From the IMG/VR virus record IMGVR_UViG_3300022217_000200, positions 1 through 43,496 of that record: 43,496 nucleotides of DNA, one strand, 5' to 3'. Below, piece after piece: positions 1 to 43,496 of the stretch. Made by a program: the position numbers and the translations under genes. The notes under the pieces are model-generated. The model searched no databases. It was not told the DNA's origin and worked only from the letters and a program-made list of their open reading frames with translations. The stretch is from a virus (lineage: Duplodnaviria; Caudoviricetes). The stretch's first letter is position 1, and each line of letters begins with the position of its first letter.

Positions 1-209
1 ATCCAGGGCCATCTCATCCCGTGGTTTAGTCCAATCGTATTTCAGTGTTGGTTCAATTAAATTCATGAATATATCGTAAAGTGCTATGATTTCATCACAA
101 TTAGAAGCAATCCATTCGAGATATAGATCTGTATCAGGGGGACTATTACCGGTAATCGCGTGTTCGCGGATTACCTCATTTGGTGGTCGACAGTAAATTA
201 GGGTAACCG
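1..209. repeat. Terminal direct repeat, left copy (209 bp)
   Basis: 1-209 matches 43288-43496 except A127 versus G43414. Confidence 0.97.
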
Positions 210-492
210 GTTTCATTGCCCGATTAGCGTCGATGTATTGATGCCAGGATAAGCCTTTGCATTCAGTTGATTTTTTAGCGAGGTCATAAATCGGTTCTGT
301 TATCCAAGTGATGCGATCTTGAATAACACATTGTCGAGTCAATAGCCAGGATTCTCGGAGATTTAAAGCCAATTCATCACTATTTCTCGGCGGATTATTC
401 CATTGGATGACTTCTTGAATGTTGAGTTTGCGTTTCAGTTTTTCAACCAATACAGATTTGCCCGAACCGTCTGGTCCTTCTACAATAATCAT
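1..492 (-). CDS. P-loop dNMP/thymidylate-kinase-like protein, 5' part; continues across the ends (197 aa in total)
   Basis: Not in the ORF track; translated by hand. ATG at 492 after GAGGT. MIIVEGPDGSGKS Walker A, then QDRITWITEPIY, LIYCRPP and YDWT. No stop before base 1. Confidence 0.85.
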   Translation of the reverse strand, partial: MIIVEGPDGSGKSVLVEKLKRKLNIQEVIQWNNPPRNSDELALNLRESWLLTRQCVIQDRITWITEPIYDLAKKSTECKGLSWHQYIDANRAMKPVTLIYCRPPNEVIREHAITGNSPPDTDLYLEWIASNCDEIIALYDIFMNLIEPTLKYDWTKPRDEMALD

Positions 493-498
493 GCTACC

Positions 499-1887
499 TC
501 ACTTTCGGGATTTTCGATAATCCAATAATGCTTGGAATAAAGAGCGTTGAGACAGGTCTTTGTTTCGGAGTCTCATCATTATTGCTTCATCTACAGTATT
601 TTCTGCAATGATATGATGAATACGTACTCGGTCGTCAACGCCTTGACGATAAATACGTCGATTGAATTGGATATAGTTCTCGAGGGAATCGGTAAGTGCG
701 AACCACGCAATATCGTTGCCACCCTGTTGCAAGTTCACCCCATATGCAATTGCTTGTGGATGAGCACAGAGTATCAGCAATTCGCGTTTATTCCAGCGTT
801 TGATAGCCAATAAATCGAGGGCATCAGTTGAAGGGATAATGGGGACTTTTTCGCCGAAGGCTTTGCGCAATTGATCTAGATCATGCCGAAAATGATAGGC
901 CGTGAATAAAGGCTTGCCTTGTAGTTCCCCCATTAACTCTTTAAGCGCTTCGATTTTGACCCCATGCAACGGTATGATTTCTCTATTTTTGACGTGCTTA
1001 GCGCGTTCTAGGGGGTCAGGGGGACGGTAAAAATGACCATTGGCTATTTGCCGGCAAACGTTATAGAGCGCTACAGCTGAATTCAATGACATGCCATCTG
1101 CATAACCATCCAATTCGGCAAAAAGCTCTCGTTCGAAATCGTCATAAATTCGCCGAGCATTGGCTGGCAAGCGAACCTTGATGATATGGTTTACCAATGG
1201 GGGCAAATCGAGATGGGTATCACCGTCGATGCGCATGACCATTGGCGCTATTTTGTGCGGTATTAGTTTTTCAGACCCCGGGATTAGATTGTATTCGGTA
1301 AATCCGCGGTATCCTGTAGGATAGAAATATTTTTCTCGGAAGGCCGTAATGTTTTTGCCCAGCGCTTTTCCCTGGTCTAAAATATAGATTTGACCGTATA
1401 GGTCCATTAGAGTATTTGGAGATGGGGTACCAGTGAGAATTATTCGTCGATTGAATCGTTCAATCCATGGTTTCAGCGCTGCAAGGCGTTTGCTGTCATG
1501 ACCTTTGTATCCACTGGATTCATCAATTACCAAAAGGTCATAAGCGGGCATTTGCTCATCTTCGAGCAACCAAAAAGTATTTTCGACATTGAGCAAATCA
1601 ATAGTCTCGTGACCAACGCGGTTCTCTTTGTTTTTGCCGTGCAAAATGGAGTAGGGCAACAGCAAATCCCACTTGTCTATCTCCTCGGGCCAAACTGTAT
1701 AAATGACTCGCTTGGGGGCAATGAGTAGAACACGCAAAGTACAGCCCGAGCGCCACCATAGACGCTCTAGAAAGTGGAGTACTACAGCGGTCTTGCCCAA
1801 ACCGGGATCAGCGAACAGACCCGCGTAGCGCTGTTCCTCGAGGAATTCAAGAGCGTCCCTCTGGTAATCGTGGGGAACAAATTTCAC
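499..1887 (-). CDS. SNF2-family (SF2) helicase
   Basis: PHDYQ Q-motif, DPGLGKT, VIDESS, LTGTP, GVNLQ and RIYRQG motifs. Confidence 0.93.
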   Translation of the reverse strand: MKFVPHDYQRDALEFLEEQRYAGLFADPGLGKTAVVLHFLERLWWRSGCTLRVLLIAPKRVIYTVWPEEIDKWDLLLPYSILHGKNKENRVGHETIDLLNVENTFWLLEDEQMPAYDLLVIDESSGYKGHDSKRLAALKPWIERFNRRIILTGTPSPNTLMDLYGQIYILDQGKALGKNITAFREKYFYPTGYRGFTEYNLIPGSEKLIPHKIAPMVMRIDGDTHLDLPPLVNHIIKVRLPANARRIYDDFERELFAELDGYADGMSLNSAVALYNVCRQIANGHFYRPPDPLERAKHVKNREIIPLHGVKIEALKELMGELQGKPLFTAYHFRHDLDQLRKAFGEKVPIIPSTDALDLLAIKRWNKRELLILCAHPQAIAYGVNLQQGGNDIAWFALTDSLENYIQFNRRIYRQGVDDRVRIHHIIAENTVDEAIMMRLRNKDLSQRSLFQALLDYRKSRK

Positions 1888-5153: not shown

Positions 5154-5747
5154 TTATAAACCAAAATCTAAATCGCCGCTACCTTCAAATGCTTTTGCGG
5201 CATCACTCTTTTTTGACAGTTCATCGTTGAACGCTTCTTGAGCTGAAATTCGATTTGCGAAACGCTCCCCTTCTTCCAATTTTTGAAAGTGTATCAATGC
5301 GAACGAGACACCCTTAGCTGTTTTGCGGTCATAAGTAAACGCCTGTAGAAATCCGCGTCCATAACAACCCCCGTAAATATGTTCCTTGTCTAAAATCGGC
5401 GAAGTATATTCATCGACTACAGATGGTTCATATTCTGAGACAGCCTTGAGGATATAGCAGCCTTCGTATCCATCATATGGATATAGCAAATCCCCGTTTT
5501 CATCGACTGCGTCGCCGTCTTTAAAAGGCGTTTTGAATCCCTTGGGAACTTTGTCACCCCACTTTTCACGGACAGCTATAGAGGCAGCTTCTTTTAATCC
5601 GCTCATATCGGTGTCTTTGGGAAAGAGAAAAGTGATCGAAAAAATCGGTTTCCCTTCCTCAAAAACTTCTTTTTCGAACAAGTGGGGAAAGGCAATTCTG
5701 GCCTTCGGTGTCACCACTTGTTTCGATGGTTTTTTCTGTTCAGTCAT
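5154..5747 (-). CDS. Single-stranded DNA-binding protein (DUF2815 / T7 gp2.5-like)
   Basis: RIAFPHLF, PFKDGD, IYGGCYGR and GVSFALIHFQKL.GERF motifs, acidic C-terminal tail, located between DUF2800 and pol. Confidence 0.9.
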   Translation of the reverse strand: MTEQKKPSKQVVTPKARIAFPHLFEKEVFEEGKPIFSITFLFPKDTDMSGLKEAASIAVREKWGDKVPKGFKTPFKDGDAVDENGDLLYPYDGYEGCYILKAVSEYEPSVVDEYTSPILDKEHIYGGCYGRGFLQAFTYDRKTAKGVSFALIHFQKLEEGERFANRISAQEAFNDELSKKSDAAKAFEGSGDLDFGL

Positions 5748-6009
5748 TGTTGCTCTCCTTTAAAATCTTTTTGATTGTCTCCTTTATTTTCGGTTCGCCC
5801 TCTCGTGTATATCGGGCTCGAGCCGCATTGGTCCACATCACGCATTCCTCGAGTTTTGTAAGAGCCAAAGATCGCTCGCGACTCTCAGGGCAAGCCGCTA
5901 CGATATTTTCAGCTAACCACATAGCCCAACCACGAAGACTTTGATAAAACCGAGTATCCTCCTTATCAGGTGGATGATAGGTAAAATTGTTCGCTAGATT
6001 ATAGGCCAT
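5740..6009 (-). CDS. Acb2/Tad1-like helical-hairpin protein; candidate signalling-nucleotide sponge
   Basis: FTYHPP...CPESRERSLALTKLEECVMWTNAA signature. Confidence 0.65.
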   Translation of the reverse strand: MAYNLANNFTYHPPDKEDTRFYQSLRGWAMWLAENIVAACPESRERSLALTKLEECVMWTNAARARYTREGEPKIKETIKKILKESNND

Positions 6010-11235: not shown

Positions 11236-11264
11236 AGAATAAGAGATTTCAGATTTTACCGCAA
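11236..11264 (-). promoter_or_regulatory. Sigma70-like promoter upstream of the primase gene
   Basis: TTGCGG-N17-TATTCT with an AGATTTCAG box (+ strand) in the spacer. Confidence 0.45.
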
Positions 11265-11687
11265 GTGAAAACCTATCGTCTTCCTAAAAAACTTGTTTTG
11301 AATTCCACCCCAAAAACGTCTAGGTAGTTCAGTCAAATACCACCAAATTGACGGCCTCGAATATCGAATTGGTTCTAAATATCGAAGCATTTCCGATGTG
11401 TACTTTGCTCCACGATCACAAGGGGGCAAATACGGAATTTGAATAGACCCTTTTGGAACAAAAACTACCCGATTGCCGTAAGAGTCTTTGTTATTGATTT
11501 TCTGATACTGCCCAATTGCTTTGCCAAAAGAGATTGGGTCGCCCCCAGCCACAATGCACTTGAATCCACCGCGATTGAGTTCAGTGGCCGATATAGATTC
11601 AATTTTGACAAAGCGCACCCCTGGACGTAGTTTTATTTGAGTTTTAAGAGAATCGAAATTGAGATTATCGGTCATCTTTTTCACCAT
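11256..11687 (-). CDS. Hypothetical protein
   Basis: 143-aa ORF that tiles the - strand operon. Confidence 0.65.
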   Translation of the reverse strand: MVKKMTDNLNFDSLKTQIKLRPGVRFVKIESISATELNRGGFKCIVAGGDPISFGKAIGQYQKINNKDSYGNRVVFVPKGSIQIPYLPPCDRGAKYTSEMLRYLEPIRYSRPSIWWYLTELPRRFWGGIQNKFFRKTIGFHLR

Positions 11688-11865
11688 TGATTTCCCTTCG
11701 CTCGATGTCTTCCAAAATGGCTTCGTCTAAAATTCGCTCGCAATTGGCACAGAGATCGGGACTATCCTCAGATGGCGCGGGTGCGAAGCATCTAATACAA
11801 TATTTCGGTGGTTCAAAGTATCCTGGGTAGTCTAATCTGTCGATTTCTGTGTATTCTCGAGTCAT
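11665..11865 (-). CDS. Small CxxC...CxxC zinc-finger-like protein
   Basis: CIRC...LCANC; ATGA coupling with the upstream gene. Confidence 0.7.
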   Translation of the reverse strand: MTREYTEIDRLDYPGYFEPPKYCIRCFAPAPSEDSPDLCANCERILDEAILEDIERREINGEKDDR

Positions 11866-12101
11866 GTGGGCACCTTGATTGTAATGTGCACGAAAACGGT
11901 GTCAGGGATAGCGCACAGCTCATTGTGACACTCTTTCCAGGTCAGGATAGTACCCTGGATAGTCTGGTCTGCGGTTTTAACTGTGAGCGTTTCTCCGACC
12001 CTTTGTGAGCTTTCACTTTTTTCGAGACTGGTTTTACGAATATGCATAGATATAGATTTCTTTGTATAACGTTGCTTTTTTGGTACTCTCAATGTAGTCA
12101 T
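11862..12101 (-). CDS. Hypothetical protein
   Basis: 79 aa, with ATGA overlaps at both ends. Confidence 0.65.
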   Translation of the reverse strand: MTTLRVPKKQRYTKKSISMHIRKTSLEKSESSQRVGETLTVKTADQTIQGTILTWKECHNELCAIPDTVFVHITIKVPT

Positions 12102-12304
12102 GATTTATCCCTGTCAGGTGAATGAAAACTGATTACGATTCGGTGGCCGCAACCGGGACACTGCGCCACGGTGAGTCAGCAGTCAGTAGTCGAGCCGCAG
12201 CTGAATTCGTCTCTTTCCTCTGTCGTTGGATCCGTTTCATCGAAATAACAACCGCAGTGGCAAACGATGAAACGGATTTCTTTACTCGCGATTTCCAGGG
12301 TCAC
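12098..12304 (-). CDS. Cys-rich 68-aa protein with in-frame TGA at codon 43; candidate selenoprotein
   Basis: Hand translation MTLEIASKEIRFIVCHCGCYFDETDPTTEERDEFSCGSTTDC*LTVAQCPGCGHRIVISFHSPDRDKS. GTGA overlap upstream and ATGA overlap downstream. Confidence 0.7.
12143..12169 (-). promoter_or_regulatory. Bacterial SECIS-like hairpin 3' of the in-frame UGA
   Basis: GUGGC-GCAGU-[GUCCCG]-GUUGC-G-GCCAC. The loop starts with G, 16 nt after the UGA. Confidence 0.55.
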
Positions 12305-12528
12305 AGTGTCCACCCTTGTTTTAGGGCAAACCAATATTTTACGACTATGGTGCCACTAGTTCCCTTTTTATAACATTCACTATTGTCGTGGATGCAACTC
12401 TTGGGAATCCAAAACGGTTCCGGTTGAAAGTCAACCGCTACAACGCAAAGCGCTTTATCAGTCTCTTTGTAGCAGGCTGCTTCTTTACTCAGCTCTACAG
12501 GGTCATTACCCCCGTTACCTCGGGTCAT
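12301..12528 (-). CDS. Small phage protein with ETxKA...WIPKS motif
   Basis: KETDKALCV...FWIPKSCI...WFA. ATG 12528 is preferred over the track start. Confidence 0.7.
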   Translation of the reverse strand: MTRGNGGNDPVELSKEAACYKETDKALCVVAVDFQPEPFWIPKSCIHDNSECYKKGTSGTIVVKYWFALKQGWTL

Positions 12529-12919
12529 CGGTTTTTCTCTCCTTTCCGTGGACTGGGCACGGTAGATTGCCCAGTTTGTAACAGGTACATTGTTCGGCTT
12601 CCCGTTTGTTGGGACCCACTGTTCCGCAGGGGAAGTGTACGACATCAGGGAACACGGCCTGTTTGCAAACGGGACAAAAGGCCATCATAGTCTTTGTTTT
12701 TTTTTGGTACTCTAGAACCATTTCTGCTTGAGTAACAATTACGCGTGTTTGAACCCGGGTCAGCTCTTCATAGGCAGATAGAAGATTCCTTTGCCGATCG
12801 ATTTCGTTCCCCAGGTCAATGAGAGCGTTTTGCAGTTGGTTTTCGCGACCATGAGCTGGACACGGATCGTCACAGTTCTCATCACAAGTGCACGGGATTT
12901 CGAATTTTTTATTGACCAC
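12515..12919 (-). CDS. Coiled-coil protein flanked by two CTC-x7-CPxHG knuckles
   Basis: Motif repeated at both termini, plus CPVC; GGAGG RBS. Confidence 0.75.
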   Translation of the reverse strand: MVNKKFEIPCTCDENCDDPCPAHGRENQLQNALIDLGNEIDRQRNLLSAYEELTRVQTRVIVTQAEMVLEYQKKTKTMMAFCPVCKQAVFPDVVHFPCGTVGPNKREAEQCTCYKLGNLPCPVHGKERKTDDPR

Positions 12920-16501: not shown

Positions 16502-16762
16502 CTAATCCTTTACGGGTCTGTCTAAACGGTAGGCTTTTGCTGCGGCCCAGAAAATCTCATAGGGATTCTCACCTTTAGCCATAGCGGATTCAGCTTTGCT
16601 TAGAGCATCAAGAGTATGGTCAAAGCGCAAAGTGATGCCTTCCCAGCTGTCCCACAGTCGAATATTGCCTCCTTTGATTTCGGCACAGGTTAATTGGTGC
16701 TCATAAGCACCTAAGGCCCTATTGATAGCTTTGTTGACGAGTTTTTCACGGAGTGTGGTCAT
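16502..16762 (-). CDS. Early protein B' (paralogue of the C-half of 16781-17293)
   Basis: Shares MTTLREKLVNKAINRA, GNIRL.D.WE and NPYE.FW. Confidence 0.85.
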   Translation of the reverse strand: MTTLREKLVNKAINRALGAYEHQLTCAEIKGGNIRLWDSWEGITLRFDHTLDALSKAESAMAKGENPYEIFWAAAKAYRLDRPVKD

Positions 16763-17047
16763 CAGACTAACCCCCCTTTTTTATTTAGAATTTTGCCCGT
16801 AAGCCGTTGCCATAGACCAAAAAACTTCATAGGGATTACCATCGGTATTTGCGGCATGTTCGGCTTGTCCGAGGGCTTTGAGCGCTTGTTCAAAATTCAG
16901 AATGATGCTTTCCCAATCGTCGTAAAGACGAATATTACCGTCTTTGACTTCTTCGCAAGCCAGTGAAGTACATGGCCCTTCATGCTCATGATTGAGCTTG
17001 GCCCTATTGATAGCCTTGTTGACGAGTTTTTCACGGAGTGTGGTCAT
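16715..17047. repeat. 48-bp direct repeat pair (16715-16762 and 17000-17047)
   Basis: 47/48 identical; the single change is synonymous. Confidence 0.93.
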
Positions 17048-17293
17048 TTTGAGTACCTTCACATTGCGCTCGATGGTTATTTTGACTTCGTCCCAGTTGT
17101 CGAAAAAGAGCGCTGGCGCTTGAATCTTGGCGTAGGATTTCAGGGTTTTCTCGGATTCTTCTTGGTCTTCAAAGGACAGAGCCCAATCCTCTTGAATGAC
17201 TCTGCTGTTTGGGCTGTCATCGTGATAACGAGCAAACCAACCGGGGTTTTCAGGGTCACTTGTAGTATCAAAGATGATTCGGACCGTTTTCAT
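16781..17293 (-). CDS. First early gene, A-B fusion protein
   Basis: GGAGGT RBS before ATG 17293, directly downstream of the leftward promoter. Confidence 0.85.
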   Translation of the reverse strand: MKTVRIIFDTTSDPENPGWFARYHDDSPNSRVIQEDWALSFEDQEESEKTLKSYAKIQAPALFFDNWDEVKITIERNVKVLKMTTLREKLVNKAINRAKLNHEHEGPCTSLACEEVKDGNIRLYDDWESIILNFEQALKALGQAEHAANTDGNPYEVFWSMATAYGQNSK

Positions 17294-17328
17294 TTTGGAT
17301 ACCTCCATTTTGTTGTGTGTCTAAATCC

Positions 17329-17356
17329 ATTCTAGCAATGGTGGCTTAGTTGTCAA
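17329..17356 (-). promoter_or_regulatory. Leftward early sigma70 promoter
   Basis: TTGACA-N16-TAGAAT. Confidence 0.8.
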
Positions 17357-17705: not shown

Positions 17706-17734
17706 TTGACATCCCTGTTCTATCACCTTAGAAT
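17706..17734 (+). promoter_or_regulatory. Rightward sigma70 promoter
   Basis: TTGACA-N17-TAGAAT, then GAGGT RBS and ATG 17760. Confidence 0.85.
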
Positions 17735-43245: not shown

Positions 43246-43496
43246 ACGGAGATAAATAGGCGATCGCTTAATATCGTTAACTAGAATATCCAGGGCCATC
43301 TCATCCCGTGGTTTAGTCCAATCGTATTTCAGTGTTGGTTCAATTAAATTCATGAATATATCGTAAAGTGCTATGATTTCATCACAATTAGAAGCAATCC
43401 ATTCGAGATATAGGTCTGTATCAGGGGGACTATTACCGGTAATCGCGTGTTCGCGGATTACCTCATTTGGTGGTCGACAGTAAATTAGGGTAACCG
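43186..43496 (-). CDS. 3' part of the dNMP-kinase-like gene (43186-43287 unique; the rest duplicates 1-209)
   Basis: Frame continues ...EMALDILVNDIKRSP... to TAA at 43188-43186. Confidence 0.8.
   Translation of the reverse strand, partial: VTLIYCRPPNEVIREHAITGNSPPDTDLYLEWIASNCDEIIALYDIFMNLIEPTLKYDWTKPRDEMALDILVNDIKRSPIYLRSIQNLSEYQQNHRGNSPSN
43288..43496. repeat. Terminal direct repeat, right copy
   Basis: 208/209 identical to 1-209. Confidence 0.97.

Follow-up and report, generated by a model that had tools for sequence, protein, structure and literature searches.

Does a bacteriophage encode a selenoprotein? The question arises from a locus at which an earlier note proposed, from the letters of the DNA alone, that a hidden gene carries an in-frame TGA read as selenocysteine (Sec). 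The window, by which we mean the whole stretch of DNA analysed, is an entire virus record of 43,496 bases with a completeness of 97% (CheckV), and is recognizable as a tailed phage. A contractile-tail module occupies its plus strand, and its minus strand carries an early and replication arm with helicase, family A polymerase, primase and exonuclease genes. The candidate gene lies in this arm, among the following features.

12098..12304, minus strand: candidate gene, 68 codons with the internal TGA read through and 42 without.
12176..12178, minus strand: internal TGA (codon 43), in place of the second Cys of an invariant Cys-Cys.
12301..12528, minus strand: upstream gene, phrog_8389-like (E 7e-5), whose TGA overlaps the candidate GTG.
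11862..12101, minus strand: downstream ORF of 79 amino acids with no family match, whose ATG overlaps the final TGA of the candidate gene.
12310..12317, minus strand: SD-like AAGGGTGG, a putative ribosome-binding site 5 nt before the GTG.
12108..12112, minus strand: SD-like AGGGA belonging to the downstream gene, within the 3′ half of the candidate.
17329..17356, minus strand: sigma-70-type promoter match, 11/12 to consensus.

The layout proposed for the hidden gene is present in full. Its GTG start (12304-12302) overlaps the TGA of the upstream gene as GTGA, its final TGA (12100-12098) overlaps the next ATG as ATGA, and the frame fills the operon gap between them. The in-frame stop also sits where it had been placed, beside a Cys and ahead of a CxxC, because codons 42 and 43 read TGC-TGA (12181-12176) and the 25 further codons include CPGC. 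The upstream gene likely starts at the ATG at 12528, its longest ORF running from 12645. The promoter match at 17329..17356 would head the leftward early and replication operon that contains the candidate gene.

We lean towards the reading in which this UGA is decoded as selenocysteine by host SelB and Sec-tRNA, guided by a hairpin that follows the codon. The odds that we attach to this and to the competing readings are a matter of judgement and were not computed.

The most mundane explanation is an artefact, either a sequencing or assembly error or the use of TGA as a sense codon throughout the genome (genetic code 4 or 25). The TGA occurs once only, and the window may derive from two of the runs that contain it, X1 and X2; contigs also drop rare variants. 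However, at contig level five of the eight runs compared bridge the codon with no letter other than TGA (X1, X2, X3, X4 and X7), at a depth across it of 33.5 in X1 and 57.4 in X2, and neither TGC nor TGT appears there. X5 reaches the TGA only at the end of its record, and X6 and X10 do not cover the codon. The bridging runs come from five studies dated 2018 and 2025, and the TGA at 12178-12176 is no sequencing error, which removes this part of the main alternative raised in the earlier note. A change of code fares no better, given that 24 of the 58 called genes end in TGA, frequently within ATGA overlaps, that TGG is used 254 times and that translation table 11 leaves the core genes open. In this phage TGA serves as an ordinary stop, and we regard an artefact of either kind as having a negligible chance of being correct.

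The phage is listed for 11 runs, 10 of them sediment metagenomes and one an estuary metagenome, with no RNA dataset among them. All runs represent the same near-identical strain and therefore give no time depth. Two differences among them lie near the candidate gene. At 12697-12705 (minus strand) the window has a run of nine A residues and run X2 has 11; in X2 a TGA that overlaps an ATG at 12688 closes the upstream frame, which makes two genes, and the window fuses them into a single ORF of 134 amino acids (12515-12919). Slippage between strains and phase variation could each account for this difference. Separately, a minor contig of X1 (depth 8.9 versus 25.6) skips 296 bases (11296-11591) inside the ORF at 11256-11687.

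Several features elsewhere in the record are also of note. The terminal segments 1-200 and 43297-43496 have about 190 bases in common, with one difference, so the record is near circularly complete, though it is classed as linear. An uncalled ORF at 1-500 (minus strand), right after the helicase, begins with a P-loop motif and is nucleotide kinase-like, and an Acb2/Tad1-type anti-defence gene occupies 5740-6009 (minus strand; PF24729, E 2e-12, above the curated cut-off). Divergent promoter matches at 17329-17356 (minus) and 17706-17734 (plus), each 11/12 to sigma-70, flank the AT-rich gap between the arms. The two genes that come first after the leftward promoter (16502-16762 and 16781-17308, minus strand) have, by eye, a duplicated segment in common, the C-terminal part of the first gene of the pair resembling the entire second gene.

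We asked whether the codons on both sides of the TGA encode a protein with relatives. Read through, the product is a 68-residue member of an unnamed family of seven-Cys phage proteins of about 60–70 amino acids. A phmmer search of 1.84 billion representatives gave 32 matches, 30 of which are proteins of 58–85 residues with the same cysteine pattern; matches P0002 and P0013 were repeats and were dropped. Profile searches added 88 further homologues for a total of 118 distinct ones, the shortest having 55 residues. The family pattern, C-x-C-G ... E ... C ... C-C-x5-C-x2-C-x2-R-x7-P-[DE] in 55–120 amino acids, is kept by the window protein at every position except the TGA at the second C of CC. 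The CC-x5-C segment is found in 118 of 118 homologues, and the column that holds the TGA in the window is Cys in all 90 aligned homologues (91-row alignment). Indeed, C17, C42, C43, C49 and P63 are invariant in this alignment, and C15, C36, C52, E30, T27 and R55 are nearly so. Since both sides of the TGA are homologous to a protein family, the reading frame goes beyond chance, and by this homology the candidate is a real gene.

Conservation extends past the stop codon, as the earlier note's proposal implied. Against a profile built without it, the window protein scores 61 bits, compared with 52–103 for members and at most 18 for non-members. For residues 44–64, which follow the TGA, the score is at the median of the closest subfamily, where 17 of 34 are lower, and C49, C52, R55 and P63 are retained. 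Residues 8–42 fall in the low tail of the same subfamily (5 of 34 lower), with K8, C19, S35 and S38 off consensus. The protein thus represents a divergent lineage with every invariant residue kept, and the gene has no lesion besides the TGA. At 12248-12250 (minus strand) it encodes an eighth Cys, residue 19, where homologues have Gly in 80 of 90 cases and Cys in one; this residue might rearrange the metal site considered below.

The family is easily overlooked and was reached only by index-free phmmer and by motif scans. It has no Pfam name, the window protein having no Pfam match, and its PHROG matches are stray, with at most 2 of 35 members matching any one PHROG. Members occur as hypothetical proteins in the Caulobacter phages CcrColossus and CcrPW, and the atlas clusters matched by a Cys homologue were all unnamed and mostly viral. 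A shared-word search and a search of viral contigs with the read-through protein were both empty, and cultured phages gave one chance match (E 7). Against metagenome contigs the protein matched the record itself and one other locus, a kinase zinc knuckle that was rejected as a family member. A first motif scan gave 120 loci, all noise once translated. At one family locus (L167), an ORF of 65 amino acids just upstream of the family gene resembles the upstream gene of the window (12301-12528) by eye, which suggests a gene pair common to both; tblastn at E 0.001 gave no confirmation.

The CcrColossus and CcrPW members have the same seven-Cys pattern and spacing as the window protein but carry Cys-Cys in place of Cys-TGA. 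This difference can also be read as a recent one-base nonsense mutation from Cys to TGA that knocked out a dispensable accessory gene and became fixed in one clonal population, an explanation to which we give a sizeable probability, somewhat short of even. Cys to TGA is 8 of the 23 one-base routes to a stop in the candidate gene, all runs lack time depth as noted above, and the same operon tolerates lesions, namely the 2-base slip at 12697-12705 and the 296 bases missing in the minor X1 contig. A knocked-out gene is harder to reconcile with the lack of any further lesion and with the retention of all invariant residues in a divergent lineage. Furthermore, the mutation must have struck a Cys, the second of the CC pair, ahead of a model-conforming hairpin, for which the family and phage background is about 4–18%, and the second Cys of a pair is the place of Sec in known Cys-Sec proteins (10.1101/2022.07.06.499078).

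Do other members of the family bear the TGA? Because protein collections favour full-length Cys forms, we searched DNA with a pattern that permits TGA at either Cys of the pair and is blind to Cys versus TGA; the pattern fits 102 of the 108 proteins tested against it. It matched 64 viral loci, of which 23 are family members (52–103 bits). None of these 23 has TGA at the Cys pair: all have two Cys codons, two of the loci encoding identical proteins. A scan permitting TGA in the CxxC recovered the same 23 members among 71 loci and no new one, a TGA-only scan of 24 of the 64 parts of the genome collection gave 120 loci and no members, and 401 Desulfobacterota genomes held no TGA-bearing member. 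Searching for truncated proteins with a profile of the N-terminal half also found none, as the 13 matches among 32 candidates were all full length. The window therefore holds the single TGA-bearing sequence of the family in the scanned collections.

This result weighs on the side of a nonsense mutation, with TGA in one lineage and Cys in 23 of 23 viral loci. This alternative, already raised in the earlier note, is nearly as likely as Sec. A new selenoprotein family is held to need two or more different TGA sequences, a single one being termed a ‘candidate’ (PMC1976440, sections consulted), and the window gene falls below that standard. One of the 23 family loci is itself interrupted, which is in keeping with the loss of such genes: L200 (2000-2220, minus strand) has two Cys codons, a frameshift near its start and an internal TAA. 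The interruption at L200 reflects either a broken copy or sequencing errors.

Bacterial Sec insertion depends on a SECIS hairpin, and the sequence after the TGA contains a candidate.

12143..12169, minus strand: SECIS-like hairpin of 9–10 bp with one bulged G (12148), −10.3 kcal/mol.

Its 6-nt loop (12159-12154) begins with GU, 16 nt after the UGA. The 10-bp hairpin with a bulged G that had been described is present at 12169-12143, except that the tenth pair, a terminal U-G, is open in the minimum-energy fold, which has 9 bp and an 8-nt loop. Its stability does not exceed that of dinucleotide shuffles (z +0.3 to +1.0 in five of five folds). We assessed the element with our own script, not bSECISearch, which applies in relaxed and strict forms the constraints of the bacterial SECIS model in Fig. 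2A of PMC13188914: a loop of 3–9 nt with G in its first two places, a stem of 4–16 bp, a spacing of 16–37 nt and an energy of at most −7.5. The window hairpin passes both forms (−10.3 kcal/mol, stem of 10 bp, 6-nt loop, spacing of 16), and so conforms to the generic bacterial constraints as proposed, at the edge of their range.

Controls indicate how much this pass is worth. Real Sec codons pass in 39 of 56 cases (selD 20/27, fdh 14/18, SelW-type 5/11). These positive controls are mostly from Desulfobacterota, with one Nitrospirae genome and two E. coli genes. For selD, the motif was not matched at 4 of 31 loci, and 1 of 28 rows was removed as not being the selD site; for fdh, 18 of 32 loci yielded a Sec site. 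The negatives pass far less often: 2 of 23 Cys relatives in the relaxed form and 1 of 23 in the strict form, 11 and 4 of 124 phage Cys codons, 1 and 0 of 24 other TGA stops of the phage, and 39 and 22 of 214 homologue peptides written in phage codons. From these pass rates, the likelihood ratio is about 4–10. The background resembles that of the Cys-type hydrogenase relatives, about 26% of which have the loop G (PMC13582414, part consulted).

The peptide itself accounts for much of this signal. When the window's own peptide is recoded synonymously, 64 of 200 versions (32%) pass the relaxed form and 56 of 200 (28%) the strict form, since the stem is made by the codons for Val-Ala and Gly-His. 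Under a nonsense mutation, the hairpin would be simply a by-product of these codons, and the recoding rates favour that explanation. In addition, the 39 real elements that pass have loops of 3–5 nt starting 17–22 or 33 nt after the codon, compared with 6 nt at 16 in the window. Beside genuine SECIS elements the window hairpin is marginal, and it is in large part a consequence of the peptide. No paper on minimal SECIS spacing was found in the literature searched.

Folding under constraint gives a similar picture. When a 6-nt loop is permitted, 31 of the 56 real elements are no stronger than that of the window, whose strength is matched at 5 of 23 Cys loci, by 13 of 428 recoded homologue peptides and by 49 of 400 recodings of the window's own peptide. 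Limiting loops to 5 nt changes these figures to 16 of 56 controls, 6 of 23 Cys loci, 28 of 428 homologue recodings and 136 of 400 own recodings. Few homologues have the residues that form the stem, V46, A47 and H54 (7, 2 and 4 of 90, respectively), a rarity that fits adaptation of the peptide to a SECIS element and is no proof of it. Two other structures considered in this region were set aside: a terminator-like site at 12154-12131 does not exceed what chance would give in the window (6 found, 7.7 expected), and an 81-nt alternative fold, in which the loop region pairs with the SD of the next gene, is less stable than shuffled sequences (z +1.0). Given the latter result, we do not claim coupling by SD masking.

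The codon could also be read through without selenium, either as Cys by an opal-reading tRNA-Cys (selC* with SelB* and CysRS*) or by leaky near-cognate decoding of UGA-C. The first route would exactly restore the family residue. A selC* tRNA-Cys with a UCA anticodon exists in a subgroup of Desulfobacterales (PMC5389517, part consulted), and the runs that hold the phage are sediment metagenomes. Such a tRNA is restricted to few hosts, however, and the phage contributes nothing of the kind: no tRNA genes were found in the window, and an Rfam search of the window gave no matches at gathering level and three weak ones, none at the candidate gene and none of weight. Leaky read-through of UGA usually yields Trp, yet no homologue has Trp at column 43. 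We consider read-through of these sorts improbable.

Insertion of Sec would rely on a host that has the machinery, as no Sec tRNA or sel gene was recognized in the phage and no second Sec candidate was found among its called genes. The closest cultured phages are 35–42% identical in capsid, polymerase, terminase and portal, and nearly all have Gram-negative hosts. Near-consensus sigma-70 promoters and AGGAG-type SD sites fit many phyla. Capsid searches for phage relatives gave two loci of 37–38% identity, whose incomplete records lack the family gene, and primase searches gave none. Prophage relatives were found neither in 301 Desulfobacterota genomes by capsid and polymerase nor in 251 genomes of one gammaproteobacterial class by capsid, results that say nothing about the identity of the host. 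Desulfobacterota is a group known from sediments. Its members include Sec users, given that selD is present in 43 of 46 genomes and carries TGA in 42 of these, and nothing ties the phage to them.

What such a protein might do is suggested by predicted structure. AlphaFold models the read-through protein, with Cys in place of Sec, at a pLDDT of 82.9 (88.7 for homologue P0010), with strands at 44–48 and 55–59 after the UGA. Because two of the three predicted strands follow residue 43, the 42-residue product would be unlikely to fold. The seven Cys or Sec side chains would probably coordinate zinc or a comparable metal, in two sites or one binuclear site. In a fold search of 48,161 chains, the P0010 model gave weak zinc-ribbon rows, led by the N-terminus of NrdR (Z 2.7, rmsd 4.7, 45 residues) and by ZPR1 (Z 2.4, rmsd 3.4, 44 residues); its best Foldseek match among viral models had an E of 0.1. 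The likeness, a CxxC knuckle on a beta hairpin, is a hint of a common arrangement and no assignment.

Returning to selenocysteine as the preferred reading, expression would begin with a ribosome starting at the GTG at 12304. SelB would bind the GU loop and insert Sec at codon 43, and translation would continue past the CxxC knuckle as far as the ATGA overlap. The product would be a predicted metal-binding accessory early protein of 68 residues with a Cys-Sec pair. Where selenium or the machinery is lacking, translation would stop at residue 42, with the loss of three of the seven ligand positions and two of the three strands. The earlier note had further proposed that translation of the next gene would depend on selenium; that gene has its own SD-like AGGGA. 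As for the Cys-Sec protein made with host machinery, the pairing of Cys with TGA at an invariant site, the conserved C-terminal half, the genuine codon and the model-conforming hairpin speak for it, and the failure to find a TGA-bearing homologue and a marginal, largely peptide-driven hairpin speak against it. The balance between Sec and nonsense depends on how often phage genes use Sec. On present evidence we give a slightly better than even chance to a phage-evolved SECIS element and a Cys-Sec early protein, from a family never listed among selenoproteins, whose output would depend on host selenium.

The candidate resembles bacterial genes with an in-ORF SECIS element, such as E. coli fdhF and fdnG and the selD, fdh and SelW-type genes of Desulfobacterota, in having UGA at the Cys of its homologues, homology behind the UGA and a hairpin loop starting with GU within 16–37 nt. 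It differs from them in being phage-borne and known from one sequence, in its earlier (16 nt) and larger (6 nt) loop, and in that its Sec would likely be a structural metal ligand instead of part of a redox active site. Most Cys-form members of its own family, in contrast, have no SECIS-like hairpin (21 of 23 loci). The Cys-Sec dipeptide is a known selenoprotein motif in a MerB-related family and in SaoC (10.1101/2022.07.06.499078, part consulted), in which Sec likewise takes the second position of an invariant Cys-Cys; these proteins belong to chromosomal operons of anaerobes and are found in many genomes, with no sequence relation shown between them and the candidate.

Among viruses, the consulted text of PMC6769590 gives the GPX of molluscum contagiosum virus and of fowlpox virus as the only proven viral selenoproteins and leaves phages unmentioned. 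Like the candidate, these are virus genes reliant on host Sec machinery, but they belong to eukaryotic viruses, use a eukaryotic SECIS and are host-derived enzymes. The words ‘phage’, ‘virus’ and ‘viral’ do not occur in a 2026 review of the prokaryotic selenoproteome (PMC13188914). No phage selenoprotein was found in the open-access literature searched, where the phrase ‘phage-encoded selenoprotein’ is absent. If Sec is inserted, the carrier and the protein family would be new, with a mechanism no different from the usual Sec insertion of bacteria.

If the TGA is a nonsense mutation, the result is an ordinary one, apart from the definition of an unnamed family of phage proteins. Should Sec be inserted, phages would be able to take up the twenty-first amino acid in gene families of their own, and Sec could occupy a position that is probably that of a structural metal ligand. 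The codon would then mark the host as a Sec user, the gene would work only in hosts that use Sec, and genes of this kind would be missed by phage annotation.
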